Below, piece by piece: positions 23,263 to 63,046 of a DNA stretch of 64,000 bases. The stretch comes from Nitrospinaceae bacterium. Lineage in GTDB: Bacteria; Nitrospinota; Nitrospinia; Nitrospinales; Nitrospinaceae. A program made the position numbers and the translations under genes. The notes beneath the pieces are model-generated. The model did not search any database and was not told the DNA's origin. It saw only the letters and a list, made by a program, of their open reading frames with translations. Position 1 is the stretch's first letter. Every line of letters begins with the position of its first letter. The stretch lies in assembly GCA_965223665.1 (NCBI GenBank), contig OZ245011.1:2112001-2176000 (forward strand). The letters are read 5' to 3'.

Positions 23263-23742
23263 ATGAAACGAATCTTGTTTACATTGTTAATGGCTGTGGT
23301 TCTGTGGGGTGGGATTGCGGTGGAAGGTGTTCTGGCCGCGGATCGGAATTATATGGTGGAAAATTGCGAGCGGTCGGTCGCCTGGCCGGAGATATTACGG
23401 ATTATCCGTTGGCACGCTCCTGAGCTCAAAGAATTCATTGAAAAAAATGTCAAGCCGACGCAAGAGAATCCTAAACTCACTGAAGAGGATCATAAGCAAG
23501 TCGAACAATTTGACAAAAACATTCAGTGGTACGTCTCCGAGTGCATTCTCTTGATGAAAGAGATCAATGTTTTGGTGAAAGCCGTGCATGATATAGACCC
23601 CGAGGAAACTTTTATAATTGGTTTTAACATTAAAAGGTCTTTAGTAATGTTAGATATTCCCTTTATTTACCATTACAATAAGAAATATGATTTCGTATTT
23701 TCCGTTAATTTTGCGCCGTTAACACCGGATAAAACTTTCTAA
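23263..23742 (+). CDS. ~160-aa exported protein family, copy 1 (putative immunity protein)
   Basis: Signal peptide, AADRNYxxENC, WYxSECxLLMKEIN; 38-nt convergent overlap with 23705. Confidence 0.85.
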   Translation: MKRILFTLLMAVVLWGGIAVEGVLAADRNYMVENCERSVAWPEILRIIRWHAPELKEFIEKNVKPTQENPKLTEEDHKQVEQFDKNIQWYVSECILLMKEINVLVKAVHDIDPEETFIIGFNIKRSLVMLDIPFIYHYNKKYDFVFSVNFAPLTPDKTF

Positions 23743-26700
23743 CAAAAACCATAACTTCTTTGGGCAAATATTTAATTACTTCAACAAAATGATCTTCTAA
23801 ACCCATTTTGTTATTATTAAATGCCGCTTTCCTTTGAGCTTTTTCAATTGCTTCTGGTTTAGAAACATAAGCAGCTAGAGCAAATAACAACGGATTCTTT
23901 GTGTCCTTGAACTGTGGCATTATATTTTTAAACAACCACCACATCCCAGCCTGAATGTTGGTTTCCTGATCCGTCAGGATTTTTTCCGGAGTCCAACCCA
24001 GTTTTTTATTCTCCTCATTCTCCGCAATCAACTTAGCGGTGGCCCGTGTAATTCCCATCGGGCCCATCCGCTTTGCTTCCGGTTTATCATTCGGATCGGT
24101 TGGGAACCCATTCTTCACCATGATGTTCATCACCTGCGCCATCTGATCGGTAGACATCGACACCGACTCCTGAAACCGCTCGGCAATTTGTAACACACTC
24201 GCCTGCCGCGCCTGCTCCGTCGAAAAGTCCAAAGGCGTCGCCTCGGCTATTTGCCCCGATTCAGTTCTCTGCTGATCCTGCCGCTTGCGCCGGATCAACG
24301 CATCGATCAATCGTTCCATATGAGGCTGAATCTTTTTATTAAACTTTTTCACGAGTCCTTCTTTATTTTTTTCCAACTCCTCCAGAGAAAATTCAGCATC
24401 CACCCGTTCGAGCACCCGAGTCACATTCTCCGGTTTGACGCCCGGCGCATACAGCATGGAATCCCCAATCTGATAATCCATCGCCAACCGCGGATTATTT
24501 TTCCACAGTTCCCGCATGTCTTCTGCATTGAGTCGTGTGAGTCCTGCAGCAAAACTATTTGAGGAAGCTTGTTCCACTTTGGGGTTTTGAATCGATTCTT
24601 GATCCGCCAGCATTTCCTCATTAAAACCCTTATGAATTTTTTCTCGGACTTTCTCGTTATAAAACCCGGGTTCTCTTAAATTTTTATAGATAAGTTCATG
24701 ATTCGCTTGCGCATTTTTATGCGACCCCGGTCGGCGCATGTTGACCAGCACCTCTGCCATTTGAGTCCACCCCGGGTCCTTTCCGGTTTCCCTTAAGATT
24801 TTACCGATAATGTCGAATGTCGTTTGCGGTAACCCGATCAGTTGATCTAAAGTAATTGTATAGAATTTGGATGCATCTTCATCTTTCTTAGTCGGATTAT
24901 GCAACGCCGTGGGAAGCCCAACCAAAACATAAATTTCTTTCGGATCTTTCCCTTCCAGATCATCCGCCGAAACCCATTTGCCTCGGTAATGGAGCTTATC
25001 TTTCATCCGACCTCGGATCAGGGAGTTTTCTATTTTCGGACTCGGTGTGGTTCCCTTGAACAATTTAAATTTCAGGATATCTTTGTTATATGCCGATACC
25101 ATGGTATTCAGACTTTTATCATTTATTTTGAGGTTTTCATTTTTCCTGAGAGCTTTAAACTTTTCCAGGTTTTGTAATTGAGCTTCCTCCAGGGGCGGCG
25201 TGTCTAAAGGAACCACGATGCCGGGACCGGAGGAAGAAGAGGAAGAGGAAACAGAGGGACGTTTTCGAGGATCCGGTGTTTGAGCGGCCAGGATACTTCT
25301 GTCCCACAATATCTCCCGTTGGGGCGTGTTTGCTTTAACTCCAATATCGGCAATTTCTTCGCCAGTTAACCTTCTTCCCAACTCCTTTTCCTTTTTCATG
25401 ATATCTTCAATGACCGCAAACACATAGAAATCCTGGTAATCCGCTTCAATCTCTTCCGACTTTATCTGCTGCAAAATGGTAGACACTTCCTCTTTTTCTT
25501 GTTCATACGAGGCACGGAGTTCGTCGATATTAGGAACCTCTTCTGTCTTTGATAGTTTTTCTGCTTTATAAAGGTCGTTGGCCGCTTTTCCAAAACGTGA
25601 TAAAAAAGTGACAATGGAAGGAGGGGCCCCGCGTTCCTCTAAATGGAAATTCGTGTTGGCCAGCCTTTCAAAGCCCAAAGGGTTGGAGGAAACCGCTCCT
25701 CTCAGAAGATCCGCCCAACTTTTGCTGCGATTAAGTTCGATTAAACCGCCGGTGAGGTCTTCTTCCGACGGTTCCCTCGAAGCAAATGGGGAAAACGAAC
25801 CATCGTCCACCGTTAATTTAAATTGACCTTCCTGAGAAGATTCCTCCCCAAACCGATAGCCCGCTCTATCCTCCCATCTTTGGATTAACAATTCCTGTGT
25901 TTTACTGTCCAGAGCCAGCCATTGATCCAGTTTGGTAATTTCCGGTAATGGCACTGGAGTTTCCCCCTTATCAATGAATTGCCGGATATAAACAGAATTT
26001 TCATATTGCGTTTCCATTTTTTTCAGGGTTTCTTCTCGATCTTTATAGGCCATAAAACTTTGCGCCGCTTGCCGTATGTTAGTATTCGGCTCATCGGTCA
26101 ATGCCCGAATTTGCAAATCTTTCGGCAACGAAAAAATCTCGTTGGCCAACGCCTCCCCCGCTTCCAATTCATATTGTCGTTCGATCCTTGCTTCTAATAC
26201 CGCAGTGTCCGTTTCCCCAAACTCCTTTTGATGTGTCGTGAAATACTCCCGTGCCTCCCTGGCATGGCCGGTCTTTAACAGACGATCGATCACCGTCAGG
26301 TTCACCGTACTTAACACATGCTGCCATTCCCGGTTTTCACGTTCCTCCGTCCAACCGAGCAGTCCGGCAAAATGTTCCACCGACAAAAACTCATCGTTTC
26401 AATCTGCTCCTCACCCAACCGGGCCACCAGGGGAGCTACCGCTTCCGATCCCTTACCGGGAATGACTGTGGGATTGCTCTTTAAGTTATCTAAAATTTTC
26501 TGAAACTTTTCTTGGGCCGAGAAACTATATTCATTGTTACTGTCCGGAAAGACTTTTAAAATCATCGGATCGGTTTTTCGTCGCAACTTGAGCGAATCCA
26601 GTCGCGGCATTTTCAGGTGCTGTTCCATAATATTGCGGAGGGTGATGGGTTGATCCATTTCCCGCAATTGTTTTCCGAAATGCCAGAGGCGCGGGCCATG

Positions 26701-26837
26701 AGACTTCCTTCCTGTTTTAAACTTTCTACCGTTTCGTTTTCTGTGTTGGCTTTCAGGGTGGATTCATCCACCGGATTGTCCTGCGATAGCTTGGCACTGT
26801 TTTGACCGGTTTGTTGTTTTCTTATTTTTATTCCCAT
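23705..26837 (-). pseudogene. Internal virion (ejection)-like protein with SLT-like C-terminus; 5' part split by two frameshifts
   Basis: ORFs 26613-26837 (MGIKIRKQ, like the start at 52280), 26311-26667 and 23705-26386 (similar to the 44393 protein); tip GPMGIT..NIQAG.WWL..ALAAY. The 893-aa part may still be expressed. Confidence 0.65.
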
Positions 26838-27139
26838 AAGGTTTCAGTTCTCAATTGGTTTTTGGTTTGAAAATATGAAGAGATTGGGAGTTTTCTTCCC
26901 TGAAGAATGGTGTAAAATCCGATTGGATCCCTTATTTTTTTGCTGGAGGTCAATTACCCCGGCCCGGCCCCTGGCCGGCGGAACCATAATATTCGGGACT
27001 CTCTTTTTACCGGAAAAATTTCCCGTTTCAAATGGCCTATATATATAATGAACAAACTCGTGATTTTTTTCTGGTTTAGCGGCAAATTGAGTCGTTTTCT
27101 GCCTCTTTCCGACGCCAAATTCGGGTAAAAAATCGAGTT

Positions 27140-27631
27140 TTAAGCTGATTTTTCCAGGAAGAGATGCTCTGCACCAGAAGCTGGGATTTCTTTTGTGGTT
27201 ATATACCCCTTCGTGGCGTACCCCAGTTTCTCGTAAATTCCCAGGGTACGCTTCGCTTCCACTTCGGTACTGATTCCCAATGTGATGACGCGTGCCCCGT
27301 TGTCTTCGGCCCACTGTTCAAATACTTTGATCAGTCGAACGCCCAGCGATCCGCCGCGGTGCTCCGGCACAACGTACACTGCCAAATCGGAGGCCATCAA
27401 ATCGTATCCGAAATAATGTTCGGTTATAAAACCAATCATCATCCCCACCGCTTCACCTTCCTTTTCAGCAATAAAGATACTGCCGGAGGGAATCAAAGCT
27501 TCTCCCAACTGTCTGCACTTGTCCTCACTGAAATCCATCATGCGAAAACGCGGACTTTCCTGATGCATGCGTTTGCCCATTTCCATGAGCATCGGAATGT
27601 CGTCCAACGTCGCCTGCCGTATATTAGCCAC
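27140..27631 (-). CDS. GNAT acetyltransferase of the phage structural module
   Basis: IRQATLDDIP, YVVPEHRGG, YEKLGY; GTG start overlaps the tail tubular B stop. Confidence 0.85.
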   Translation of the reverse strand: MANIRQATLDDIPMLMEMGKRMHQESPRFRMMDFSEDKCRQLGEALIPSGSIFIAEKEGEAVGMMIGFITEHYFGYDLMASDLAVYVVPEHRGGSLGVRLIKVFEQWAEDNGARVITLGISTEVEAKRTLGIYEKLGYATKGYITTKEIPASGAEHLFLEKSA

Positions 27632-30404
27632 CGAGTTGTACCTCCAAAGCCATTGATAAAATTGTGGTCGGCACCGGGTCGCGTTGGCGAATGAACGTTT
27701 GCCCCGCGCGATTCCATCCCGGGGTGAGCGCCACTTCAATTTCACTGGTAATCATTTCCGTGGGAAAGCCGTAAGGTTCGGTGGTTCGCTGAATGTAAGG
27801 AGACAGGTGATCGAAGTCCGGCCCCACTAAAAGTCCACGACTGTCTTTCACACGAAAGTACGCATGCGTGACCGATTTCATAAACCCCTGACCAAACGCT
27901 TCGATTTGCATCGCCATCGGCAACGTCACCAGATCTGCTTCAATAGGCAGTCCCACATGCACACGGCCACCGGGTAAATTAAACTGTACCTCACCGTCCG
28001 TCACCACTTCCTGCGAATCGACGCGACCGTCAGAAAAAATCGATACCGTTTGCCCCTCTAAATGATGCAGGTTGTTCACTTTCGATATCTTCTTTCGCAC
28101 CACGCCACCTTCTTCGTAAACATTGTATCCGGTTCCATCCACATCTTCCGGAGTGGTCACCGGCGTTTGCAGTTCAAAGCTGTTCGCATCTGAGTTGTTG
28201 ATCTTAAAGGTATGTCCGTTGAGTTCAGTCATTCCTTCAACATTGGCGATGATCACTTCGTCCCCGTCATTGAATCCATGACTGTTGGCGGTGATCACTA
28301 TGGGATTAGCCTTTGTGGCACCGCTGATGGGTTTGGGATCATCGTAAGTCAACCCGCTGTCCACAAAGAATGCGTCTTCCACTTCGTAAAATCGTCGCGA
28401 ATGCAACCGCTCGATGTAACGACGCTCGACACCGTTAATGGTACGTTTCACCAGACAGTACAACATGTTCTCGCCATTGTTCTCAGGAACTACGGCGGTC
28501 GACTCGAATGCACCTTCTAAAGTGTCGTGGCGGTGCCAGCCGAGAATGATCGGCTGTTGGTCCGGCAAGTAAGTACAGCCCAACAACTTGCCATCGGACC
28601 GCACACACCATACGGTCGAATTGGGATAACGCGAGTAATCCCAATCGAGAACCTTAAACCCGTCGATCAAATGCGGCGCGACCAGTGAAATGTCATCCGG
28701 TTTATACTTGTCCCGTTCAAAGGAGAAGTTAAACGTGTGCACATGATTCCCCTTGTCGGCAATGAACAAAGTGGAATCCCCTACCACCAATGGACGCACG
28801 TCGGCACTGCCAATGTGACTTTGCACCTTGATATTGACGGTGGTGGGAGTGAGCGCGTCTGAGTTTCCAGTGGAAAGTCGCCACTCGTTATTATTGGTGA
28901 AGACCATGAGATCGTTGAGTGAGACCAGGTGACGCACGCTGTTGTGTTGGCGAGATTTCAAACGCACCGTAATCGCGTTGTCGTCCTGCGAAGGAATCGA
29001 TTTGGTTAAATTGGATTCGGTTCCCGAGCGCGTCATCCAGATTGCCTGAGGTAAATCATTGGATGAAGCCAAACAACGGCGCTGGTCGTGATACGCTACG
29101 GTTCCCGGGTAATGGTTCGCCGCATAAAAGGGATCCGGATCAAACGGCGGCGTTTGCAAAACATCCGGTGTGATATTGTCATCAACAAATTCTAAATCGG
29201 AGGTTTGTCCGATGTACCCGTACAAACCTTTTTCCAGTTTGTAAACATTGTAACGGATAGCATTAGTTACCGGCTCCCAACCAATGGTATTATTAGCGCC
29301 ACTTTTTGATAAATCGTTTATGCAAACAGCTTCGCTGACAAATCCTCCAGATACATAGTTGGTGAAATTGGAAGAATCAGTTCCCGACAACTCAAAGGTA
29401 TCAGTATTCGGATTCAAAACGTCGTAAAATTGCCCGTTAATCCCTGAGGTCCCATTCAGTCCTGTCATTCCCTCTACTTCAGTAATTCGAATACGATCAC
29501 CATTGGAGAAAGTATGACCAACTGCTGTAACTAATAAGGGACTACTTCCACTTTTAGTAATGGTTCCGATTGCAATTCCTCTTGCAGGTAGGGATTCCTC
29601 CTGAATATCCTCGTCGATTGCTGTGACCTGATAATCGTAATCAATACTATCTCCTCCACCGGCCCCAACATCTGCAACCGAAGCGACGGTGATTGGTGGC
29701 TCAATCGATGGCTTCCAATCGATGATATTGAATGCCCAGTTGGTGGCGCCCATGCGGCGCAGTTCCCGGGGAGCGTAGGATTTATGAGTGATGGTGACTA
29801 CGTCAGCGCTTTGTTCGAATTTGAGTTGAAATAAATCCGCGGCAGGGTAAGGCGTGGCTAAGGTATACACACAAGCCGAGGTTCCCCCCGAAGTGTAGGG
29901 AGTATAACTCAGGCCATTAATATTGTTGCCTTGTAGATCGGTGAGTTCAAACGTATCGGTGAGTGGATTTTTGATTTTAAAGAACCGGCCGTTGAGTTCA
30001 GTCATTCCACCGACCCCGTTAATAAACACTTCATCGCCTGCCGCATAACCATGCCCGGTAACCGTAACCATTACCGGGTCGGCATTGGTGGCGGCGGTAA
30101 TATTTTGAGCCGTTTCCAATATCGTTGCGCCTTCGGTATGAACGCGCATGTAAAAATCGCCGAACTCCAGAATGTACGCCTGATCTGTATTAAAGATAAA
30201 CGGCAACAAACGCACAGGATTGGGGCCGCCGTCTTTCGCTTCTTTTATAAACTCGAACCCCGAGCGGTTCTCGGCAGGACCGGAAGGTCGTGTGATAAAG
30301 TTTCGACACCTCTCAACTCCAATCTGAAAGTGATGGAGATCGATGCGGCCAAACATTTCAGGAGCCACTTCGGCTCCGCCAAACGAACGTTGATGCGTAC
30401 GCAT
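27624..30404 (-). CDS. Tail tubular protein B (nozzle) with three inserted FCCH-like repeats
   Basis: QRSFGGAEVAPEMFGR, PFIFNTDQAYILEFG, YPGTVAYHDQR, GWHRH, FFVDSGLTY. Confidence 0.9.
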   Translation of the reverse strand: MRTHQRSFGGAEVAPEMFGRIDLHHFQIGVERCRNFITRPSGPAENRSGFEFIKEAKDGGPNPVRLLPFIFNTDQAYILEFGDFYMRVHTEGATILETAQNITAATNADPVMVTVTGHGYAAGDEVFINGVGGMTELNGRFFKIKNPLTDTFELTDLQGNNINGLSYTPYTSGGTSACVYTLATPYPAADLFQLKFEQSADVVTITHKSYAPRELRRMGATNWAFNIIDWKPSIEPPITVASVADVGAGGGDSIDYDYQVTAIDEDIQEESLPARGIAIGTITKSGSSPLLVTAVGHTFSNGDRIRITEVEGMTGLNGTSGINGQFYDVLNPNTDTFELSGTDSSNFTNYVSGGFVSEAVCINDLSKSGANNTIGWEPVTNAIRYNVYKLEKGLYGYIGQTSDLEFVDDNITPDVLQTPPFDPDPFYAANHYPGTVAYHDQRRCLASSNDLPQAIWMTRSGTESNLTKSIPSQDDNAITVRLKSRQHNSVRHLVSLNDLMVFTNNNEWRLSTGNSDALTPTTVNIKVQSHIGSADVRPLVVGDSTLFIADKGNHVHTFNFSFERDKYKPDDISLVAPHLIDGFKVLDWDYSRYPNSTVWCVRSDGKLLGCTYLPDQQPIILGWHRHDTLEGAFESTAVVPENNGENMLYCLVKRTINGVERRYIERLHSRRFYEVEDAFFVDSGLTYDDPKPISGATKANPIVITANSHGFNDGDEVIIANVEGMTELNGHTFKINNSDANSFELQTPVTTPEDVDGTGYNVYEEGGVVRKKISKVNNLHHLEGQTVSIFSDGRVDSQEVVTDGEVQFNLPGGRVHVGLPIEADLVTLPMAMQIEAFGQGFMKSVTHAYFRVKDSRGLLVGPDFDHLSPYIQRTTEPYGFPTEMITSEIEVALTPGWNRAGQTFIRQRDPVPTTILSMALEVQLGG

Positions 30405-31228: not shown

Positions 31229-31351
31229 AAAAAAGCCCCGCTGCCGTAGATAACTTCTACAGAGCCGGGCGTCGCATTGCGGTGGTCCCAGAGAAACCAG
31301 AAATTAGTTTCCATTCCTAATTATTATACCAAGTCAGAACGCATTCGTCTG
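31229..31351 (-). promoter_or_regulatory. Promoter plus conserved attenuator-like leader, copy 2
   Basis: Closely similar to 23038-23162 with a different inner hairpin. Confidence 0.7.
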
Positions 31352-32869: not shown

Positions 32870-32910
32870 TATTTCTTCCTATTGAGATCTTTGCGTCAGT
32901 TAGAAAAAAT

Positions 32911-33062
32911 AAAACCCCTGAAGGTGAATCCCCCCAGCCGCGGCCCCCGGCCGCTGGGAAATTAATTTTCTTAAGGTAACTTTTAGTGCTTATGGTCTTT
33001 CAATTTTTGAAAATCTTTATTGCTTCCAATCGCTAGATTGGAAAAGAGGGAGCACATCGGTC
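32911..33062 (+). repeat. REP-like repeat, long form
   Basis: AAAACCCCTGAAGGTGAATC...CCAATCGCTAGATTGGAAAAGAGGGAGCACATCGG. Confidence 0.7.
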
Positions 33063-33261: not shown

Positions 33262-33302
33262 CTAGTGTTCTATGAGTATCGTTATTATTTTTTTCATGGA
33301 CT

Positions 33303-42665: not shown

Positions 42666-43148
42666 ATGAAACGAATCTTGTTTACATTGCTATTGGCTGT
42701 GGTTCTTTGGGGTGGGATTGTGGCGGAGGGTGCGCTCGCGGCGGACCGGAATTACACGATCACAAACTGCAACCGTAAAAAACTGTGGGAGGATGTATCT
42801 AGCCGCATCCAGGTTCACAAACCCGAATTGATTGAGTACCTTAAAGAAAACATTAAATCCGATAAAGAAAGACCCCAATTAAGCGAATCCGATTACAAAG
42901 TTATTGAGGAATTTGACAAAAGTATTCAATGGCACGTCTCGGAATGTATTTTATTTATGAGAGAAGCCAATCAATTAATCGATTCCATTTATAAAGTTAA
43001 TTCTGAAAATGCCGACAATATTTCTTGGTATTTTATTGATTTATTTTCACGAAAAGATATCCCTTACATAAGACTTTGGAATAGGAATACTGAAAAAAGA
43101 TCCTTTTCCTTTAACTTTTCTCCTTTAGAACCTGAAAAAATTTATTAA
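42666..43148 (+). CDS. ~160-aa exported protein family, copy 2
   Basis: Same motifs as copy 1; 38-nt overlap with the remnant at 43111. Confidence 0.85.
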   Translation: MKRILFTLLLAVVLWGGIVAEGALAADRNYTITNCNRKKLWEDVSSRIQVHKPELIEYLKENIKSDKERPQLSESDYKVIEEFDKSIQWHVSECILFMREANQLIDSIYKVNSENADNISWYFIDLFSRKDIPYIRLWNRNTEKRSFSFNFSPLEPEKIY

Positions 43149-43368
43149 TCTTGACTTTCAAGGGCTTTGATAAATATTTTTTAAAAATTTCATATTTTTT
43201 ATCCATCCCTTCCCCTTCATTTTTCACAGCCATCTTCCTAACATCGTTCATCATTTTTTTCCCGAGCATAAATTCACTGATCACAAATGCGAATCGATTG
43301 TTGGTTTTGTCATAATCATCCCAAAGATACTTGAATAAATATGCTTCCACCAACTTGATTTGCTCAAC
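43111..43368 (-). pseudogene. Orphan 3' fragment of an SLT-like ejection-protein tip
   Basis: VEQIKLVEAYLF..W..Y.KT.N..AFVI.EF matches the C-terminus of the 44393 protein. Confidence 0.75.
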
Positions 43369-43947: not shown

Positions 43948-44430
43948 ATGAAACGAATCTTGTTTACATTGCTATTGGCTGTGGTTCTTTGGGGTGGGAT
44001 TGTAGTGGAATCTGCGCTGGCGGCAGACCGGAACTACAAAATCGAAAACTGCGATCGCAAAAAACTATGGGAAGGTTTTTCAATTGAACTGCAAATTGAA
44101 AAACCGGAACTGATCGAATTTTTAGATAAATATGTTAAACCTACAAAAGAAGCTCCTAAATTAAACGAATCCGACTACAAAGATATTGAACAGTTTGACC
44201 AAAAATTTCAATGGAATGTTTCTGAGTGTATATTATTTTTTAAAGAAGCAAATCAATTAATAAATTCTGTCTATGAATTGGACAATAAGCAAGCTACTAA
44301 TATTTCTTGGGTGTTTACTTATTTATTTTCAAGAATGGACATCCCCTATGTCGACTTTTACAATAGAACTACGGACAAATGGTCTTTTACCTTTAACTTT
44401 GCGCCTTTAAGGCAAGGAAAAACTTATTGA
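43948..44430 (+). CDS. ~160-aa exported protein family, copy 3
   Basis: Same motifs; 38-nt overlap with 44393. Confidence 0.85.
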   Translation: MKRILFTLLLAVVLWGGIVVESALAADRNYKIENCDRKKLWEGFSIELQIEKPELIEFLDKYVKPTKEAPKLNESDYKDIEQFDQKFQWNVSECILFFKEANQLINSVYELDNKQATNISWVFTYLFSRMDIPYVDFYNRTTDKWSFTFNFAPLRQGKTY

Positions 44431-47400
44431 TACCCTTTTGCTTGTCCCCATCTAAATACTTACTAACAATTTCATATTTTTCGTGATCTCCTTTTTTCTT
44501 AATTTTTTTTGCCTGTTCCCTAGCTCTTTCTATCGCAGACTTTCCGTATAAAAACTCTCCAATCACAAAGGCCAAAGGATTTTTGGTTTTGTTGTATTTC
44601 TTCCACAACCGACCAAACAAATACGCTTCCACCAACTTGATTTGCTCAACCGGGTTTTTCATGACATCGTCAACGTTAAAGTTCAATCCCTCCACCTTCA
44701 ACAGGTTCACCGCATCCACCATGGTCTGCACCTTCGGTCGGGTCAGTTGGAACAAGCCTTTCTCTCCAGTTGACTTCACCAACTTCGGGTTGAGTCCCGA
44801 TAACATCTGCCCCAATGCACCCAACGTCCTATTGATCTGCCGGTCCGCCACCTCATATTCAAAGGGCGCGGTCTTGGTGACTTGATCAAAACTTTGAATG
44901 ATCTCCCGCTCACTATTAAAACTCACAGCACCCACTTTCCAATCCCCTTGCTGCGCGAACAATTCCGGAGCGCGGCCTTGTTTATCGCGGATAATTCCAT
45001 CGATCAAATTCCCCACCGGTGCGCGAGCCCCTTGTGGAAGGCTGTTTAACATTTCATCTTTTCCGTCCTTTAAGGTTTCCCCGGTCATTCGATACGCATT
45101 TTCGGCCAATACCGTCAGATTATATACCGTACCCTCCGTAAACATCAGGTAATCTCCCAGGCGCACTTTACCTTCTTCCCCTTCCATTTCCTCTTTGAAA
45201 ACTTCCAAAGATTCTTCATCCATTCGCATGACCTTCGGAGCTTTCTTATGAGCCAACGCCTTGTGGACCACCGTCGGCGGCTTGTTTCCATCCGCTATTA
45301 TTTGTTGAACTCCTCCGGCGGGCGTCAGGGCATCCAGCGGAAAAAATTTCGATACACTTTTACCGATCACATCGGCGACGTGTTCATTTTGCACAAGTTC
45401 TCCCTTACCGTTCCAAACCATGATCGCTTTCCGGTCCTGCTGCAAACGTGCTTCATAAACTTCGGCAATGTTTTGCATGGTCAGTTCTTTGTTTTCCCGT
45501 TTGAGTTTTTCCCCAATGGCATTACGCATACTCTCCGGAAGAGCGATCAGGTCCTTCACAAACACCTTCTTGTCCCCTACATTGACATAGGAAGAAAGAA
45601 TCTCCTTGTTCGTCAACTCAACTATCCGGCGGCTGACACCATTTATAAATACTTTGTCATGAAACAGACTATTCATGTAATAAGACATTTCTTTTTCACT
45701 GGGTTCCCGACCTAATTTTTCCTTAAAGTTTTTAAACTTAATTCCTAAAAAAGCATTGGCTCTATCGAAAACATTTTTACGAGTTTCCCGACCCAGGCCA
45801 TTGGCTTTAGCAATGCCCGACAACTTGTTTTGAAAGTTCGCCTTTTTTTCAAGAGAGCTTTCGGACTGAACCGTCTTTTGCCATTGTTTAAAGTTATCCA
45901 CCGTCCAATGTTTTTGAATCAGTTCGTTCAGTCGGGTCTCATCAAACACTTCTTCAAAGGAGCCGCCCTCTGACAATACTTTTTGTAAAACGTCCGTCAA
46001 GACCACGTTTCTAAACTCCGGGTCAAAGTTCACCGACTCCACTTTTTGGCTTAGCGTTCGCAACAGATTCAGTTTATTTTGCAACCGCGTTTTCACCACA
46101 TTGATATCCCCAACCTGCTGTACCTCTCCCTGTTCCGAGTTTTGAACGATTCGTTGATCTTCCTGAATCCCTCCTATAAATTCGTATAGCTTCGAGCGAA
46201 ACTTTCCTTTTTCGTAATGATTCACATCGAATTGATACGCGAAGTTTTTCGCGGGATCCCGGTCACTTAACAAAATGTTATCCACCCATCCCCCAACGGT
46301 TCGGGATTCCTGCTTCAACACGTAATGAGAATTTTCTTCTTTCGCCGATTCCTTAACTTGACCCTGAGACGCAATATCATTTTGGGTAGAGACCAATGTG
46401 GCGGCAGTTCCATCTGCACTGTCTTCTTCAAGGTTCACATCCAGCGAAGTTTTAAACGGCCGTCCGTCATCCACCGCCAATACCGCCTTCCCCGTGAATT
46501 GAGGGGGTTGAAACTCCGGGTCACCCTGCGTGCGCTCTTTGAGTTGCGCCTTCATTACCTGCTTCGTTTTTTCATCTAAAGAATTAAAATCCGGATGGTA
46601 ATGCAAATCCACCAGCGTGGGACTCGTCGGACTGTCCCAAATAAACTTGAAAACCTTCTCACTGTTATCATAGTTCAGTTTTAATTGTTTTCGCTTCTCC
46701 TCCAGATTCCGATGCACCAGTAACTGCCGGGTCATCTCCAACTCTTCCGGATCATCAATATGCCGGAGTTCCTCCTGTTGCTCTTCTTCCGGCAAGGACT
46801 CCAGCACCACCACATTGTGCTGAGCTTTTTCCAGAGTCACCCTTTCCTTAATCCGCGCTTCCAGTTGCGCTTTGTCGGTTTTGACAAACTTGTTTTGATT
46901 CTCCTTAAAAAATTGCTCCGCCTCTTCCCCTTGCTGGCGGTCCAGTAAGCCGTTAACCACACTCAGGGCCACCGCTTCTTCAATATTGGCGGTTTCCGCC
47001 TGGTCCCGTTCCTCACTCCACTCCATCGCCACTTTCATTTGACCCATGGTTCGGTACAAACTCACAATGTGTTTTTCTCTTCCATCAACATCGAGCGGAT
47101 TATCACGTATCGCTTTCAGCAAAGCGGCACGCGTGTGCTGGTAATCCTGAATCAGAGCCCGTTTCCGCTGAGTTTCTTCATACACTCCAGCCCGTTGAAA
47201 CAAATCTGCAAATTTTTGTTTTAAAATGGGCTCATACTCTTTCCGCACATACGACCGCATACCCCCTAACGCATTTTGGAGAGCCTGAAATTTTTCCGAG
47301 GCCGTATCCAATCCGTACTTTTCCATGAGTTCCGGATCCGTCGTGACGGTGGCACTTTCACTTGTAGTCGTATCAGCCGGTTCGAACAAAGGTTTTACGA

Positions 47401-47701
47401 TCTTAACAAGCGCATCCGTGTAGCCAAAACTCCTCTCTCCTTTCAAGGGAGCCAACGTTTTCATTACACTTTCTACATACTCGGTCGTCGCTTTATCTGC
47501 TTTCATTACGGATTGACCATCCGACCTGCGTCTTTGCACGTCCATGAATACAGCCGCTTCGCCTAAAGTGTCACTGAGTGCGGCCAGATTGCGCACTTTC
47601 GCTCCACCGACCAGTTCCGGCGTGACATTCAAACGCAACTGGCCGCCCCCAAGGGATTGGGGATTCACGGTGGGGTTATTTAACGCGGGGATTTTGGGCA
47701 T
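44393..47701 (-). CDS. Internal virion (ejection)-like protein with degenerate SLT-like C-terminal domain
   Basis: MPKIP start, long helical body, position in the structural cluster; tip KGLFQLT..PVEQIKLVEAYL..PLAFVIGEF. Confidence 0.75.
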   Translation of the reverse strand: MPKIPALNNPTVNPQSLGGGQLRLNVTPELVGGAKVRNLAALSDTLGEAAVFMDVQRRRSDGQSVMKADKATTEYVESVMKTLAPLKGERSFGYTDALVKIVKPLFEPADTTTSESATVTTDPELMEKYGLDTASEKFQALQNALGGMRSYVRKEYEPILKQKFADLFQRAGVYEETQRKRALIQDYQHTRAALLKAIRDNPLDVDGREKHIVSLYRTMGQMKVAMEWSEERDQAETANIEEAVALSVVNGLLDRQQGEEAEQFFKENQNKFVKTDKAQLEARIKERVTLEKAQHNVVVLESLPEEEQQEELRHIDDPEELEMTRQLLVHRNLEEKRKQLKLNYDNSEKVFKFIWDSPTSPTLVDLHYHPDFNSLDEKTKQVMKAQLKERTQGDPEFQPPQFTGKAVLAVDDGRPFKTSLDVNLEEDSADGTAATLVSTQNDIASQGQVKESAKEENSHYVLKQESRTVGGWVDNILLSDRDPAKNFAYQFDVNHYEKGKFRSKLYEFIGGIQEDQRIVQNSEQGEVQQVGDINVVKTRLQNKLNLLRTLSQKVESVNFDPEFRNVVLTDVLQKVLSEGGSFEEVFDETRLNELIQKHWTVDNFKQWQKTVQSESSLEKKANFQNKLSGIAKANGLGRETRKNVFDRANAFLGIKFKNFKEKLGREPSEKEMSYYMNSLFHDKVFINGVSRRIVELTNKEILSSYVNVGDKKVFVKDLIALPESMRNAIGEKLKRENKELTMQNIAEVYEARLQQDRKAIMVWNGKGELVQNEHVADVIGKSVSKFFPLDALTPAGGVQQIIADGNKPPTVVHKALAHKKAPKVMRMDEESLEVFKEEMEGEEGKVRLGDYLMFTEGTVYNLTVLAENAYRMTGETLKDGKDEMLNSLPQGARAPVGNLIDGIIRDKQGRAPELFAQQGDWKVGAVSFNSEREIIQSFDQVTKTAPFEYEVADRQINRTLGALGQMLSGLNPKLVKSTGEKGLFQLTRPKVQTMVDAVNLLKVEGLNFNVDDVMKNPVEQIKLVEAYLFGRLWKKYNKTKNPLAFVIGEFLYGKSAIERAREQAKKIKKKGDHEKYEIVSKYLDGDKQKGINKFFLALKAQS

Positions 47702-47815
47702 AAAGTTCACCTGAGTTGAGTGTTACACGGTTTGTTTGAAATTTCCTAAAAAAAGTTTCGATTACAATGTTTATTCCATTGACATCATTTTCAAAGAGTC
47801 CTATATTATTCACAT

Positions 47816-55909: not shown

Positions 55910-55910
55910 A

Positions 55911-57569
55911 CTAATTTCCGGTTAACATTTGTTTAATATCGGTCAACGCATTGGCACCTCCGGTGTCGGTCTCCGAAAGTGTCTTCGCTGCGTCGGCCGT
56001 TTCCATCATGCCCTGCATCTGCTGCATCATGGCTTGTTGTTGATCTTCTTTCTTACGAATGAGCGCGACTTGTTCATTGGCGACGATCACATGGGAAGGC
56101 ACCCCATACATATCCGCCAATTCGTCGACCAGAACATCAAAATTAACTTTGCCGGTTGCACGTGGAAAAAGCTGACTGATAGAACCCACGGAACCCAGCA
56201 AACGCTCAATCCCGTTGATGCCTACCGACTTCTGCGCCTGGGCCAACATGCCGACGAACTCAACGGTTAGATCCATGCCGGACATTTCCTGCGGAATCGG
56301 TGGGAACAAATCATTCTCCATGGCCAACTCAAAAGCGATGTCTATGAGCGGACCACCGATTTCGTTCTGCCCGCGCTCCAGCACCGGTCCCAGGATCAGC
56401 AACTTCTCGGAATGTTTTTCCTCGATTTCACGAGCCGTGACTTGACGCCGATCCGACAGCGCGATCATTTGAAACAAATCGGTAAAGAAAGTCGTTCGGA
56501 TTCGATCCCGAATATCCTGAATGTCCAGGAGGATAGGATTCAGATCAACGTTCACTTCGAACGCGGTTCGAATCCCACCTGCCGGATGGTTCTGGTCATA
56601 AAAGGTTTTACCACCGGGCAGGACATCGCTCGAATCCTTCAACGAAGAAGGTATCTGCAACGGCGGATCGGTTTTATAATCGATGGCATTGCTTTTCTTC
56701 AACTGGTCGAACTGCAACTGTTGAATACTGCCCAACGCCTGCATGCCGGGACCGTGGCCGTAAATATCCTGACCTCGGGTGACCCATCGGGGAACCAGAC
56801 CGGGAAAATTACGATACCCGCTCTCCCGCAAAAACTTGTCCTTCTCGTTGGTCTTGGCTTCATAGTGCACCGACATGAAGGGCATGTTTTTATTGTCATG
56901 CTTTTTATGATCGCGTTCTCGACGCGGCTCGATGGCATGGATCACCGTCACCCAATCGTCATAGCGACCGTTGTTGTAACGATCCTTGACGCGCTGGCTG
57001 ACGTTTTCCAATCCATATTCCTGAACCAACGCCGCCACCTGCATATCAAACTCGCGGTAGAGCGTATCCACTTCGCCGCGATTATTGTTGGCGATGTAAT
57101 ACTCTCCCACGGTTTGAGGATGGAGGCGGATGACATCTTTAAAGTCGCGTGTCACCACGGCGCTGGCGGTGCCGAACGCACCGCGCTCTTCATACATTCC
57201 ATGAAGAACGCGATACGTATTGGATCCGTTGAATATGGCCATCAAAACGTCGCGAGCCGCATCCATCCATTGACGGATGGGCCCGAACTTTGCACGATCT
57301 TTGTCCGGAGAACCCAGGCGGAACCAATTCTTTGCAGGGCTGGTTTCTCCGGCCATTTCCCCCGCAGCCAACACTCCTAACGCATGACTCGCAGTTTCAT
57401 CGATAATCTCGTTGAAGTCCCGTTTCTTGTTCCGTTCGGTGGTTAAGAACCGACCGCTCACCGGAAGAAGGTGCGAGCTGATACTGCGGTACACACTGTC
57501 GAAGGTCGACCGTTCCGTCTTCATCGATTTCAATCGTCTGTTATGGTACTCTCGTTTTGATTCTGCCAT
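55911..57569 (-). CDS. Portal / head-to-tail connector
   Basis: TSPAKNWFRL, VDTLYREF, PRW....YG.GPGM.AL, TAREIEEK..EKL.ILGPVLER. Confidence 0.93.
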   Translation of the reverse strand: MAESKREYHNRRLKSMKTERSTFDSVYRSISSHLLPVSGRFLTTERNKKRDFNEIIDETASHALGVLAAGEMAGETSPAKNWFRLGSPDKDRAKFGPIRQWMDAARDVLMAIFNGSNTYRVLHGMYEERGAFGTASAVVTRDFKDVIRLHPQTVGEYYIANNNRGEVDTLYREFDMQVAALVQEYGLENVSQRVKDRYNNGRYDDWVTVIHAIEPRRERDHKKHDNKNMPFMSVHYEAKTNEKDKFLRESGYRNFPGLVPRWVTRGQDIYGHGPGMQALGSIQQLQFDQLKKSNAIDYKTDPPLQIPSSLKDSSDVLPGGKTFYDQNHPAGGIRTAFEVNVDLNPILLDIQDIRDRIRTTFFTDLFQMIALSDRRQVTAREIEEKHSEKLLILGPVLERGQNEIGGPLIDIAFELAMENDLFPPIPQEMSGMDLTVEFVGMLAQAQKSVGINGIERLLGSVGSISQLFPRATGKVNFDVLVDELADMYGVPSHVIVANEQVALIRKKEDQQQAMMQQMQGMMETADAAKTLSETDTGGANALTDIKQMLTGN

Positions 57570-57772
57570 TAGGGTGCCAATATACTTTTTCCCGTATTGA
57601 GTGAACTGTCATCAATACCGGAAGTTCCGGTTAATAAAGTGGATCGTTGTCCCTTTCCGACTCTTCCGCGTCGCCTTCTTCGTAACGAAGTGCCCAACTC
57701 ACTGGAGGGAGCCTTGGCCAACTGCGGCGGAGGTGGAGGGGGAGGAGGAGGGGGAGGAGCGCCACCACACAT
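57569..57772 (-). CDS. Small Pro-rich phage protein upstream of the portal
   Basis: MCGG-polyPro, Arg-rich, STLLTG; stop overlaps the portal start. Confidence 0.75.
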   Translation of the reverse strand: MCGGAPPPPPPPPPPPQLAKAPSSELGTSLRRRRRGRVGKGQRSTLLTGTSGIDDSSLNTGKSILAP

Positions 57773-57776
57773 AATG

Positions 57777-58136
57777 TTATCTCCTTGATTTTAAGAGCGA
57801 GGAATCGCTCGGGTTAGTATTGGGATTATCCATCCCGGTAGGACTACTGAGTAACGTGGGCCGAGGCGTTGCCAGAGACCGGGCCCGCGCTTTACGTTTC
57901 TTTAATACGGCTTGCACATCCGGATTCGGAGTTTTATTTTGATTTTGGGTCGCACCGACAATATTTTGAAACGATGAATTATTTCCGATTTGAGGACCTC
58001 TTACCACATCGACAACGCTTTTCACCTGAGAAAACGGGTCCAAAGGCATTCCTGTTGCGCGGCTGACTTCGGAAAGCCCACCCGTGGCGATTCCTGCGCC
58101 CACTCTAAAAATTGTTCCAAACGTGCCACCACACAT
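57777..58136 (-). CDS. Paralog of the MCGG small protein
   Basis: MCGG start, basic patch plus RPTLLS; AGGAG RBS. Confidence 0.7.
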   Translation of the reverse strand: MCGGTFGTIFRVGAGIATGGLSEVSRATGMPLDPFSQVKSVVDVVRGPQIGNNSSFQNIVGATQNQNKTPNPDVQAVLKKRKARARSLATPRPTLLSSPTGMDNPNTNPSDSSLLKSRR

Positions 58137-58251: not shown

Positions 58252-58731
58252 ATGAGACCGATCTTGATGACATTTGTAGTTGTTGGCTTGCTATTAGGCA
58301 GCGCCTCTTTGGGAAGTGCCGCTGATCAGAATTACATTATCGAGAACTGCGATCGCGAACAACTTTGGGCGGAAATTTTGAAGGATATTCGTTGGCGCGC
58401 CCCGGAAGAAACCAAGTTCATTGAAGAACATATTCAACCAACCAAAAATCGCCCCAAGCTGAGTGAAAAAGATTACCAAGACATCGAGAAAATGGATAAA
58501 GACATTCGCTGGTATGCCTCCGAATGCATTTTGCTAATGAAAGAAATCAATAAATTTTTGGGGGCGATTCATTCTAAAAACCCCAATATGGGTTCGCGGT
58601 TAGCCTTTACAATTGATGGGACCTTAGTTAAATTTGAAATCCCATTTGATAGATCCTTCAATCGACAAAATAACCTTAAACCTTTCTTTGAATTTAAATA
58701 TTACCTTTATATGCCTTTCGGAAAGCTTTAA
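58252..58731 (+). CDS. ~160-aa exported protein family, copy 4
   Basis: AADQNYIIENC, WYASECILLMKEIN. Confidence 0.85.
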   Translation: MRPILMTFVVVGLLLGSASLGSAADQNYIIENCDREQLWAEILKDIRWRAPEETKFIEEHIQPTKNRPKLSEKDYQDIEKMDKDIRWYASECILLMKEINKFLGAIHSKNPNMGSRLAFTIDGTLVKFEIPFDRSFNRQNNLKPFFEFKYYLYMPFGKL

Positions 58732-58808
58732 GATATTCTGCCGGGGATAAGTTATTCAGGCCTGGTTATTTAGTCTTGATTGATATCTGTGTGATATAAA
58801 ATTTGGTT

Positions 58809-59288
58809 ATGAGACCGATCTTAATTTTATTAATAGTTACCGGCTTACTTATGAGTGTGCCACAAACCGGAAACGCTGCCGATCAGAATTACATTATTGA
58901 AAACTGCGACCGGGAATGGCTTTGGGCTGAAATTTTGAAAGACATTCGCTGGCGAGCACCGGAAGAATCTAAGTTTATTGAGGAACATATTAAACCCACC
59001 AAAAATCGCCCAAAGCTTACAGAAAAGGACTTCCGGGATATCGATAAAATGGACAAAGAAATCCGTTGGTATGCCTCCGAATGTATTTTACTGATGAAAG
59101 AAATTAATGAATTTTTGGGGGCTATTCATTCTAAAAATTCCCGAATGGGATCACGATTAGCATTTACAATTGATGGCACTTTAAATAAGTACGATATTCC
59201 TTTTTTCAGGGATTTTAATAGAGAAAACAATCTAAAACCATTTTTCAATTTTAGGTATTATCTTTATAAGCCTTTCGGAAAGCTTTGA
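58809..59288 (+). CDS. ~160-aa exported protein family, copy 5
   Basis: Close paralog of copy 4. Confidence 0.85.
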   Translation: MRPILILLIVTGLLMSVPQTGNAADQNYIIENCDREWLWAEILKDIRWRAPEESKFIEEHIKPTKNRPKLTEKDFRDIDKMDKEIRWYASECILLMKEINEFLGAIHSKNSRMGSRLAFTIDGTLNKYDIPFFRDFNRENNLKPFFNFRYYLYKPFGKL

Positions 59289-60187
59289 GATATTCTGCCG
59301 GGGATAAATCGTTCTTATTTGGTCGTGTATTCATGAATGTAAGCTTTTAAACTTCATTAATTTTATCTCCTGCTCCCTTACCCAGAGTATTTTCGGCTTC
59401 CTCTCTCGCTTTTTCTACATCATTCGCCCCTATTTTGTACTCCAATACCATGAACCCGATCCGATCATCCACATATTTATAACGTTTCCAACCATCAAAA
59501 AATAATGCTTGTCCTGCAATGATATTGGCTTCATTTTTATCGCGAATTTCTTTGGAGGTGAAACCCGTATTTAGATTTTTGGCGATTAAATCTGCTGTTT
59601 TTTTAACTATTTGCATCAATCCGGAAGCTGTGGAATTTGGATTTTTTACTTTTTGCCTGAAACTGGATTCAATTTGAATTAACGATTTTGTGATTCGACT
59701 CGCTTCTTGAATAGGAACCGGATAACTAAATTTCTTATGAGTTTTAGCGGTAATTAAATCCCACCGAATGTTTGACCTCCTTCACCGTACCGAATTTATA
59801 ATTGGGATTAAATTTTCCCTGCTGAACGGGTGGCTGGCTCGGACCTTTCGGTGCATTGACGATGGCCTGCTGCATTGCCCAGTCCATTTGCGGGTTGCCG
59901 GTGGCCAAGGAGTCCGGACTGCCGGGTAGCGGTTTGTTGGGATCCTCGGTGTTGTATAAAATACCGGGATCAATCGATCTCTCCGAGGCTGGTAGACTTT
60001 CCTTAGCCGTGAAGTCTTGACTCAATAAAGTCGGTCTTCGATTTCTTCGTCTTCCTTTTTTAGTGCCAACCCGGCGGTCATCCTTTTTTCCGGAGCCATC
60101 TCCGTAAAGGATTTCCGCCATCTCTTCCCATCTTTCCCGCTCTTGCAGATTGGATCTGCCATATCCGCTTAAATTAATTCTTCCCAT
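59251..60187 (-). pseudogene. Lytic transglycosylase (SLT)-tipped protein with a frameshift (~59760) and an in-frame stop (59347)
   Basis: Reconstructed LIQIESSFRQKVKNPNSTASGLMQI..NIIAG; frame continues past TAA to ..EYLKAFRKAYKDNT* at 59251. Confidence 0.8.
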
Positions 60188-60258: not shown

Positions 60259-60470
60259 GTGAGACCGATACTGATGATATTTGTAGTTGCCTATTTAATT
60301 ATGGGTGAGCCGCACATCAGGCACGCTGCCGACCAGAATTATATTATTGAACACTGCGACCGGGATGGGCTTTGGATTGAGATTTAAAAGACATTCGCTG
60401 ATGCGATAATGTTTCTGGCTGACGAAAGAAATCAATAAAATGATCTTGGATATTCATAAAAAGAATACAG
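60259..60470 (+). pseudogene. Decayed copy of the ~160-aa family
   Basis: RPILMIFVV..AADQNYIIEHCDR..LW.EI* and KEINK remnants. Confidence 0.7.
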
Positions 60471-61269: not shown

Positions 61270-61752
61270 ATGAAGCGAATCTTGTTTACATTGTTAATGG
61301 CTGTGGTTCTAATTGGTGGGATTGTGGTGGATGGTGTGCTGGCAGCCGACCGGGACTACAAAATCAAAAACTGCCAACGCACTAAAGTGTGGCCGGAGAT
61401 ATTGGATCATATTCGTTTAGGCAATCCAGAGTTAAAAGATTTTATTGAAAAAAACATCAAACCGACTCGGGAAGATCCATTATTGAGCAAGGACGACTTT
61501 CAAGAAATTGAACGGTTGGATAAAAACATTCAGTGGTATGCCGCCGAGTGTGTCCTTCTAATGAAGGAAATAAATATCTTAGTCAAAGCAGTTCATGAAG
61601 TAGATCCTGAAGAAACATTTTTTATTGCCAATCCAATTTATAGAATACTTGGAAAACTTAAAATTCCTGTTATAGTAAACTCCAAGGGAGTTAATGATCT
61701 TGCTGTTTTCTCTTTTAACTTCTCTCCTTTTTCTCCGGAAGAAACTTATTAA
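61270..61752 (+). CDS. ~160-aa exported protein family, copy 6
   Basis: Same motifs; 38-nt overlap with 61715. Confidence 0.85.
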   Translation: MKRILFTLLMAVVLIGGIVVDGVLAADRDYKIKNCQRTKVWPEILDHIRLGNPELKDFIEKNIKPTREDPLLSKDDFQEIERLDKNIQWYAAECVLLMKEINILVKAVHEVDPEETFFIANPIYRILGKLKIPVIVNSKGVNDLAVFSFNFSPFSPEETY

Positions 61753-62448
61753 CCATTTCTTTAATTTCATTTGGTATTTTTTGCAGGACCAATTCAAAGT
61801 TTATTTTTTTTCCTACATTTTGTCCATTTACATTCTTTAAAATCCGGTCCATGGGTTTTTCTCCAAGAAAAAAATTAATTAAAGCAAACCCAAAAGGATT
61901 GTCCGTATTGTTATTATATAGAGGCTTATAATATTTGGTTAACAACCAAACCGCTCCCTCGATGTTTTCGAAGTTGTTGTTGAGGATGTCTTTCTCTGAA
62001 TAGCCCAGGTCACTTTTGGTGGCGATGATCTTCGCCTGCCGTGGCGTGAGCGCCATCGGCCCACGAGGAATCTCCTTATCCCGCACTTTCCATTTCACTT
62101 CCGACCGGTCCATCGCTAACTGCTCGAACAATTTCCGCCTTTCTCGAGTGACGGGTTTCGATTGATATGAACTCCCACCCAAAGACACATCCACCGCCTC
62201 GGCCCCTGCGAAAACCCTGCTTCTATTGCTTTGAACACCGAATCGAGATCGGTATTTTTTGAAGAAGAGAAAGCAAACACGTTTTGGATCGCTTCTGAGG
62301 TTTTACTTTTCCATTTTGCCGACCCGGTTCGCGGCAGGGTATAGCGCATCTCCATTATATTTTGATAGGTGATCGATTTGCCCTGCTCCATTAATCGGAA
62401 ACCGATGGCTTCCAAACCATCCTCCGAAAGGTGCAGCCCTTCACCCAC
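61715..62448 (-). pseudogene. Orphan C-terminal cassette of an ejection protein (SLT-like tip), frameshifted
   Basis: 62116-62448 AIGFRL...ITYQNIME aligns to AIGEKL...LTMQNIAE of 44393; 61715-62194 GPMALT..NIEGAVWLL..FAL. Confidence 0.7.
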
Positions 62449-62563
62449 TGCATTTATATTTTTTTCTATAGATCGAATTTCATTTTGCCGCCGATTCGAT
62501 ATTTTAAATAAATGAAAGAAAATTAATTTACCTCCAATCGTTAGATTGATATAATTACTGGTT

Positions 62564-63046
62564 ATGAAACGAATCTTTATTACAATTATAATGGCTGTGG
62601 TTCTATACGGTGGGATTGCGGTGGAATGTGCGGTGGCGGCAGACCGGAACTACAAAATCGAAAACTGCAACCGCAAAAAAGTCTGGACGGAGGTTTTTGA
62701 TTATATTAATTGGAATAATCAGAATCTTAAAGTATTTATAGAAAAGAATATAAAACCTACCAAAGAGGATCCAAAATTAACTGAAGATGACTACAAGCAA
62801 ATTGAACAACTGGATAAAAATATTCAGTGGTTTGCATCTGAATGCGTTCTATTAATGAAGGAAATCAATGTTTTGATAAAGGCAGTACATGAAGTTGATC
62901 CAGAACAAACTTTTTATATTGCTAATATAATTGAAAAAAATCTAAATAAGGAACAAATTCCATCATTGTGGAACTCTAAAGGTGTAAATGATCTAGCGGT
63001 TTTCTCTTTTAACTTTGCTCCCTTTTCTCCGGAAAAAAATTTTTAA
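62564..63046 (+). CDS. ~160-aa exported protein family, copy 7
   Basis: Same motifs; 38-nt overlap with 63009. Confidence 0.85.
   Translation: MKRIFITIIMAVVLYGGIAVECAVAADRNYKIENCNRKKVWTEVFDYINWNNQNLKVFIEKNIKPTKEDPKLTEDDYKQIEQLDKNIQWFASECVLLMKEINVLIKAVHEVDPEQTFYIANIIEKNLNKEQIPSLWNSKGVNDLAVFSFNFAPFSPEKNF

Follow-up and report, generated by a model that had tools for sequence, protein, structure and literature searches.

Convergent, overlapping cassettes of SLT tips and small exported-looking proteins in a podovirus island of a Nitrospinaceae bacterium: possible blockers of phage wall penetration

A podovirus-like island in the chromosome of a Nitrospinaceae bacterium (NCBI GenBank assembly GCA_965223665.1, contig OZ245011.1), a relative of marine-type nitrite oxidisers, carries repeated pairs of convergent genes, in which a small plus-strand gene for an exported-looking protein overlaps, tail to tail, a minus-strand gene or gene remnant for a C-terminal domain related to lytic transglycosylases. 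The stretch of DNA analysed, hereafter the window, spans 64,000 nucleotides (nt; G000:C1:2112001-2176000, where G000 is the genome studied); L001 denotes the stretch from C1:2176001 onward, and the genome used for comparison, G018, is of the same genus, with L040 and L042 among its loci. We propose that each small protein acts in the periplasm to block its cognate phage SLT tip, in the service of superinfection exclusion or immunity, and that orphan copies have been kept; we give this reading a probability of roughly 45%. It is the reading that best fits the strict adjacency of the two genes, their co-diversification, a cassette boundary at a domain edge, selection on orphan copies, a separate promoter on the opposite strand and the exported character predicted for the partner.

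The window contains seven plus-strand open reading frames (ORFs) of 159-166 residues, ending at 23742, 43148, 44430, 58731, 59288, 61752 and 63046, and opposite each of them (7/7) a minus-strand frame has its stop 37 nt short of the small-gene end, giving an overlap of 38 nt; these minus-strand partners carry an SLT/GH23 (lytic transglycosylase) domain. The initial annotation had described seven such tail-to-tail overlaps, and all are confirmed at these ends. Two of the partners are complete open genes, and the remaining five are fragments or pseudogenes; the small genes are intact in all seven cases. Copy 1 (23263..23742, plus strand; the conserved ATG lies at 23263 and the listed ORF begins at a TTG at 23245) faces an open gene for an 893-residue ejection-protein homologue with a C-terminal SLT-like tip (23705..26386, minus). 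This protein is shorter by about 230 N-terminal residues than the 1105-residue ejection-type protein encoded by the open partner (44393..47710, minus) of copy 3 (43948..44430, plus), a gene whose position is that of SLT-bearing and giant internal proteins in phage BPP-1. Next to the latter pair stands copy 2 (42666..43148, plus), itself intact and with only an orphan tip, an 80-residue C-terminal fragment (43111..43353, minus), as its partner, and this orphan-module pattern is repeated at copies 4, 5 and 6. Opposite the orphan copy 4 (58252..58731, plus) there remains a 20-codon remnant of an SLT-protein C-terminus, ending in NNLSPAEYLKAFRKAYKGNI and the stop (58694..58753, minus); copy 5 (58809..59288, plus) overlaps a pseudogene of an SLT protein of about 309 residues (59251..60187, minus) that is broken by a frameshift near 59760 and by a TAA in frame at 59347-59349; and copy 6 (61270..61752, plus) is paired with a 159-residue SLT-tip fragment (61715..62194, minus). 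The partner of copy 7 (62564..63046, plus) is the 3' part of a homologue, about 1100 residues long, of the 1105-residue protein (63009..64000, minus); it leaves the window and extends in one frame to L001:2302, where there are two in-frame stops (TAA and TAG). As the in-frame stops of the broken partners mix TAA and TAG, stop-codon recoding was rejected. An eighth small gene survives only as a 44-residue N-terminal fragment (60259..60390, plus).

The small proteins form one family, with 41-62% identity to copy 1 among the window copies. All window copies have a basic and then hydrophobic N-terminus ending in AAD(R/Q)NY, the hydrophobic stretch being about 17-20 residues long and followed, by alignment, by an A-x-A-like site in which (L/N)AA precedes D, and two cysteines are invariant in 24 of 24 family sequences. 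The earlier description of the plus-strand partner as a protein of about 160 residues with a signal-peptide-like N-terminus and two conserved cysteines is thereby borne out, and from these features the small proteins look exported, probably to the periplasm. An AlphaFold2 (AF2) model of the small protein (predicted local distance difference test, pLDDT, 83; predicted template-modelling score, pTM, 0.75) is a helical bundle with a hairpin, preceded by a low-confidence N-terminal helix. Searching the PDB with this model, Foldseek returned nothing at E <= 0.001 (best E 2.1), and a wide VIA-align search reached no Z above 5.9, a value obtained with helical proteins judged unrelated; the top score in an ESM Atlas search with the small protein, 0.80, is a lead only. 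No family was assigned in Pfam, PHROGs, NCBIfam or PADLOC. A weak match to phrog_7900 (E 0.0085, in one of four copies scanned) and another weak one to Cas2d/Cas2b (21.7 bits, in one of six copies scanned) were taken as chance.

The small ORFs are real genes under purifying selection: the ratio of nonsynonymous to synonymous substitution rates (dN/dS) is 0.05-0.30 in 19 computable pairs that include every orphan copy, and dS reaches saturation in places. Of the 12 small genes in this genome, seven face a partner that is a fragment, is broken or is gone, and all are still open. That the small genes stay intact and under purifying selection despite the decay of the SLT partner is what immunity or exclusion genes would do.

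The string TGnTAnAAT-N8-ATG is present in 19 of 23 small-gene copies, with no Shine-Dalgarno-like sequence between the element and the start. At copy 1 this extended -10 promoter-like element (TGATACAAT; 23246..23265, plus) stands 8 nt before the ATG, and the same element occurs at 42649, 43931, 61253 and 62547. The window has seven matches to the extended -10 element followed by N8 and ATG, against 0.23 expected, and five of them are at small genes. This spacing and the missing Shine-Dalgarno-like sequence predict that each small gene is transcribed separately, into an RNA that is probably leaderless and runs towards the 3' end of the facing SLT gene. The pattern also occurs twice on the minus strand, at 23123-23142 and 31312-31331, one site being just upstream of the tail-fibre gene and the other upstream of the tail-tube module, and leaderless-type starts may therefore be general in the island. 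Rfam and tRNA scans found nothing.

The register of the overlap is widely kept. Taking G000 and G018 together, the minus-strand stop lies in the 38-nt register in 25 of 28 copies, which are not all independent since contig C9 of G018 partly duplicates C13; 19 of the 25 have an open partner frame of at least 80 codons and six have a ghost or remnant only. As for the exceptions, two copies overlap by 44 nt and one (L040:6366-6848) has no overlap, being separated from its neighbour by a 66-nt gap. The 38 nt form a local peak of conservation, with a mean identity of 63% against 35-44% in the flanks (136 pairs) and, within clades, of 82% against 54-62% (28 pairs), as dual coding predicts; the constant length reflects shared descent together with a double coding constraint, and not convergence. 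The overlap had also been viewed as a lock that makes the two genes hard to separate by recombination. At L040:11322-11795 a ghost of the old overlapping tail is kept and the current SLT neighbour ends 43 nt downstream; therefore the junction can be remodelled, and this case together with the 66-nt gap weakens the notion of a lock, which is not absolute.

Two kinds of protein carry the SLT domain: internal-virion-type proteins of about 1100 residues, and proteins of about 300 residues with a near-invariant N-terminal module. Against the Pfam SLT model PF01464 (cut-off 21.3 bits) the latter score 34.8-47.8 bits in one search and 37-49 bits in a six-frame genome search, and the piece at 59347-59619, in the copy-5 partner, passes with 25.5 bits; the 1105-residue protein is borderline (17.5 bits as a protein, 22.0 bits in the six-frame search), the tip facing copy 7 (tip 7) falls under the cut-off with 17.8 bits, and the 893-residue protein has no PF01464 match. 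A profile of 20 tips finds Slt70 (1qsa) with an E-value of 2e-8, the IESS of the tips being aligned to the RQES of the catalytic Glu; single-sequence PDB searches with two window tips found no transglycosylase. The structure of one tip, the last 160 residues of the 1105-residue protein, was modelled with AF2 (pLDDT 89.3), and Foldseek matched this model to MltE, MltF, MltC and Slt70 at TMq 0.63-0.69 with probability 1.00 and a best E of 6.5e-4. By profile and model, the tips are assigned to the lysozyme-like SLT/GH23 fold. The calls of catalytic residues in the window tips rest on alignment at about 20% identity; with that proviso, the Glu of the E-S motif is retained in tip 7 and in 11 of 11 proteins of about 300 residues (E171 invariant), and Asp/Arg stands in its column in the 61715 fragment. 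Enzymatic activity thus appears plausible for the class of about 300 residues. The tips have dN/dS of 0.12-0.39 in 13 computable pairs, and neither the 309-residue nor the 1105-residue protein has a match among the INPHARED phages.

Small proteins and tips have diversified together. Their distances are correlated over 21 pairs, a set that excludes copies with a tip of less than 120 residues (Mantel r 0.85, p 1e-4), which puts a figure on the earlier remark that similar tips go with similar partners. In maximum-likelihood trees of the same pairs all well-supported small-protein clades recur in the tip tree; the sole difference is one tip (L042) that the tree leaves unresolved, and the congruence of the two trees, which the initial annotation had proposed to examine, holds with no well-supported conflict. 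When units of different type within a genome are compared, their DNA is 23-65% identical across the small gene and the SLT C-terminal domain, with a sharp rise to 86-100% over the first 400 nt or so (5' part) of the SLT gene; likewise, all 11 of 11 proteins in the class of about 300 residues are near-invariant from residue 1 to about 115 and vary in the rest. Thus the variable unit consists of the small gene plus the SLT C-terminal domain.

The family has 12 full copies in this genome, all within C1:2135245-2187142 and five of them just past the window, in L001, and about 16 in G018; the tip-like sequences of the genome all fall in the same stretch. L001:1-12037 (C1:2176001-2188037) encodes three intact SLT proteins of about 300-345 residues in tandem, upstream of the terminase genes, and two of these three genes are preceded by small-gene doublets, an orphan and then a cognate copy. 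Among 120 genomes of the phylum, real matches to the small family were obtained only in G000 (13 rows) and G018 (18 rows), with one additional weak, broken match (E 6.4e-4). A word-indexed search of 5.8 billion proteins recovered 24 full-length members, three of them from other assemblies (P0008, P0010, P0011), and a HMMER scan of 1.84 billion representatives gave six family clusters and one weak unrelated match; the family was found neither in the viral-contig scan nor in the metagenome-contig scan. The initial annotation had entertained that the family might occur mostly without SLT neighbours. Its copies always stand beside an SLT gene or remnant, none being seen away from these among the copies examined in G000 and G018; of the 10 Pfam SLT matches in this genome, four are found outside the island, none of these with a small-family neighbour. 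Contigs from four runs of one study, probably including the source sample, yielded only short-sided joints at paralogous repeats and no usable structural variant.

The region is a prophage-like, BPP-1-like podovirus island. With a G+C content of about 45%, the window exceeds the chromosome (38%), and its structural genes code for a portal (47% identical to BPP-1 Bbp21), a protease/scaffold, a major head protein, a Bbp16-like protein, a T7 gp14-like protein, large internal proteins, tail-tube proteins A and B and a tail fibre, with the terminase in L001. The SLT genes of the class of about 300 residues closely precede the small terminase gene (L001:6123-6647), and on their own upstream side is a gene for a 705-residue protein without a family match (L001:12658-14775). 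The island is syntenic in G018, where head genes have 93-99.8% protein identity and ejection, SLT and small genes 32-88%, an arms-race-like pattern; between the two genomes the portal has a protein identity of 99.8% and a DNA identity of 93.7%, whereas the DNA of the rpoB region is 89.0% identical.

In our reading of the island, the C-terminal, peptidoglycan-binding or -cleaving SLT/GH23 domain of virion or ejection-type proteins has co-diversified with a small, helical and probably exported protein whose gene converges on it. In the mechanism that we envisage, an extended -10 promoter of its own would allow the small protein to be produced without the late operon of the opposite strand. After export to the periplasm it would bind the SLT domain of a related phage or particle arriving with the variant that matches it. 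Such binding would block wall penetration and lead to superinfection exclusion or immunity, and the extra orphan copies would broaden the range of variants blocked. As a tentative extension, one may picture a phage-borne polymorphic 'tip and blocker' system in which related temperate podoviruses compete at wall penetration, tip variant and blocker travel as one recombination cassette bounded by the conserved 5' SLT module and the conserved promoter, and residents stockpile orphan blockers, expressed from leaderless-type promoters, against the other tips of their rivals. If so, it would be the phage counterpart of the orphan immunity arrays of interbacterial warfare.

Several points weigh against the small proteins being blockers. 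In the alignment discussed above, the column of the catalytic Glu holds Leu in the 1105-residue protein and Asn in the 893-residue protein; therefore these two intact large proteins of the window may not cut peptidoglycan, perhaps leaving nothing to neutralise enzymatically, and enzymatic attack by them is doubtful. The proposal of cognate effector-immunity or exclusion pairs in the initial annotation accordingly stands in part: the SLT fold, the exported-looking partners, the congruent trees, the SLT adjacency and the selected orphans agree with it, and the Leu and Asn do not fit its peptidoglycan-attacking effectors. The small protein is without a relative of known function in the family libraries searched, and dN/dS computed in windows along the small gene in the largest clade never exceeds 1, the highest value, 0.82, falling in the signal peptide and the mature part reaching at most 0.42. 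Co-phylogeny and a shared cassette are also expected from tight physical linkage alone. Charge complementarity is merely a tendency: an acidic small protein goes with a basic tip in 16 of 21 pairs, the correlation of charges is not significant (Pearson -0.40, p 0.07; Spearman -0.20, p 0.39), and of the sister contrasts five are opposite, three the same and one zero. Further, some genes of the island are pseudogenes, and the element may be in partial decay. The data show the anatomy, the fold, the co-diversification, the limits of the cassette and the selection on orphan copies; that the small proteins are exported, and made in the lysogen, is predicted from sequence only, and the timing of expression, the binding and the exclusion phenotype are inferred. 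At L042 (G018:C13:189550-190522), a separate site, the charges are reversed, with a net charge of +5 on the small protein and -6 on the tip, a single and anecdotal case that is suggestive of an electrostatic interface. A complex prediction of the mature protein of L001:10666-11145 with residues 135-309 of its SLT partner scored 0.00, was run without controls, and weighs neither way.

The expectation from linkage alone leads to a different account, which we consider rather unlikely, namely that the small gene is a linked moron: an envelope protein expressed in the lysogen, with a job unrelated to SLT such as exclusion at another target or a surface change, that co-varies with the tip only by its place in the cassette. 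Its own promoter and opposite orientation are typical of morons, linkage would by itself produce congruent trees, and some of the partner tips are without the catalytic Glu. A mere passenger sits poorly, however, with an association that spans two carriers, of about 1100 and about 300 residues, and all clades, with a variable block that stops exactly at the end of the SLT domain, and with a family not found elsewhere in this genome or in other genomes.

Improbable in our judgement is a small protein that helps the phage's own SLT protein, as a periplasmic regulator or partner in lysis or ejection, for instance an anti-endolysin timer, a docking factor or a spanin-like protein. Lysis genes are often found just upstream of terminase genes, and the SLT genes of the class of about 300 residues adjoin the small terminase gene on its upstream side; the size and the N-terminal hydrophobic helix, moreover, resemble those of i-spanins. 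Against this stand the 7 of 12 small genes that have stayed intact although their partner no longer works, the location of the family on the opposite strand under its own promoter, and twelve paralogues, which a helper in lysis would hardly need. The model is likewise a globular bundle with a hairpin (pTM 0.75) and not the extended coiled coil of an i-spanin (Rz-like), and there was no ORF for a lipoprotein (o-spanin) partner among the listed frames.

We give slightly less weight still to kin immunity, in which the island would have ceased to yield infectious phage and would produce domesticated tailocin-like or gene-transfer-agent-like particles with SLT tips, and the small proteins would protect sister cells. 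Consistent with domestication are the syntenic layout in two species, the portal that is closer in DNA than the rpoB region, the pseudogenes and host-like cargo, and the lack of integrase or replication genes in the annotated parts, where integrase, repressor and replication genes were not searched for systematically. Terminase genes are nevertheless present, and tail-tube genes were not found in the G018 loci compared, so the G018 element may simply be defective. That the small ORFs are chance or antisense frames beside the SLT genes, as the want of a database family match might suggest, is refuted by the selection pattern (dN/dS 0.05-0.30 with dS up to saturation), 24 full-length homologues with a confident predicted fold, the conserved promoter and start, and an overlap with the other frame of just 38 nt per gene.

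The closest parallel to the proposed blockers is Spackle (gp61.3) of phage T4, which, according to PMC7677548, is a small protein of the periplasm. Its signal is cleaved, its fold is a helical bundle stabilised by a disulfide, and it binds the gp5 tail lysozyme of the incoming virion, away from the catalytic residues, and brings about superinfection exclusion. The family described here is likewise small and phage-borne, and its signal-like N-terminus, mostly helical model and two invariant cysteines would fit the same design. It differs in that no sequence similarity to Spackle was found and Spackle is absent among the Foldseek and VIA-align matches listed for the small-protein model; in its putative target, the SLT/GH23 domain of podovirus ejection-type proteins instead of a T4-type lysozyme; and in its convergent, overlapping, multi-copy and polymorphic genes with orphans. 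The function of Spackle is proven, whereas that of the small proteins is a proposal. The bacterial proteinaceous inhibitors of lysozymes and transglycosylases, according to PMC7677548, consist mostly of beta-sheet and act by a loop that enters the active site. Ivy, MliC, PliC and PliG resemble the proposed blockers as periplasmic inhibitors of muramidase-fold enzymes, and differ from the helical model obtained here. Pim, the pesticin immunity protein, is periplasmic and gives no protection against a T4-lysozyme chimera, and so offers, according to PMC3390615, a likeness in being specific to the sequence of one lysozyme-fold activity domain. Pesticin and the colicins are, unlike the SLT proteins, receptor-imported bacteriocins and not virion proteins, with neither arrays nor the 38-nt overlap, and no homology was found between the small family and Pim or colicin-type immunity proteins. 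Some colicin immunity genes are read convergently from their own promoter.

The polymorphic toxin-immunity loci (contact-dependent inhibition, Rhs, and peptidoglycan effectors of the type VI secretion system such as Tse/Tsi) have orphan modules and immunity islands, with the immunity gene normally downstream on the same strand. The cassettes of the island resemble them in their conserved N-terminal module, variable C-terminal domain and adjacent co-varying small protein, and in their truncated orphan tips with intact partners and stockpiles of partner genes. They are unlike them in that the small gene is on the opposite strand and overlaps its partner tail to tail, that structural or ejection-type proteins of a phage serve as carriers, that there is no secretion system, and that some tips are without the catalytic Glu. 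An SLT domain inside a structural or ejection protein is known from BPP-1, in whose record bbp11 is annotated with a soluble transglycosylase inside the structural cassette, and from T7 gp16. The SLT domain is N-terminal in gp16 and C-terminal here, and the BPP-1 annotation has no convergent small exported gene beside bbp11.

In the literature, judged from titles and the beginnings of abstracts, we found no description of such cassettes. If the small proteins are cognate blockers, theirs would be the second mechanism known, T4 Spackle being the first, by which a phage excludes its rivals through disabling their wall-cutting tip, and the first such system built of polymorphic cassettes with orphan stockpiles; they would also supply about 20 natural enzyme-inhibitor pairs for studying the specificity of lytic transglycosylase inhibition, and a first view of phage-phage conflict in the Nitrospinota, a phylum whose phages have hardly been described. 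Should the small proteins prove not to be blockers, they would still make up a well-defined, lineage-restricted family with predicted export.

Other features of the island deserve mention. Between cassettes 2 and 3 lies a 45-residue ORF (43479-43616, plus) that may be what is left of a gene for a DUF559-type endonuclease. A unit of about 477 nt, repeated in tandem about 2.6 times, occupies 47753-48998, between the genes for the 1105-residue protein and a 1112-residue protein; each unit has a TTGACA-17-TATATT-like site a few bases before a plus-strand ATG, antisense to the late genes, and G018 has a gene for a 711-residue protein at this position. Just upstream of the portal gene, at 57569-58136 (minus), two small ORFs both begin with MCGG, one of them with a run of 11 prolines, and both have an Arg-rich stretch followed by (S/P)TLL, like the N-terminal module of the SLT proteins of about 300 residues; BLASTP of this module against the 119-residue ORF upstream of the portal gave no significant similarity. 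The tail-tube protein B homologue (27624-30404, minus; phrog_376, E 8e-196) has three stretches that match the FCCH domain of ubiquitin E1 (PF16190, 116 bits). Host-like cargo at 31373-42615, absent from the G018 loci compared, includes a sigma-54-type activator that also matches the PADLOC RtcR/PspF CARF-AAA-HTH models, a fatty-acid desaturase, a CDP-archaeol-synthase-like protein, phosphoenolpyruvate-utilising enzyme domains, a methyltransferase, an acyltransferase and an 827-residue acyl-reductase/kinase fusion. The left flank of the island (L043 and window positions 2-15548) encodes several TPR proteins and an array of paralogous proteins, each of about 400 residues and bearing a CBM96 carbohydrate-binding module.

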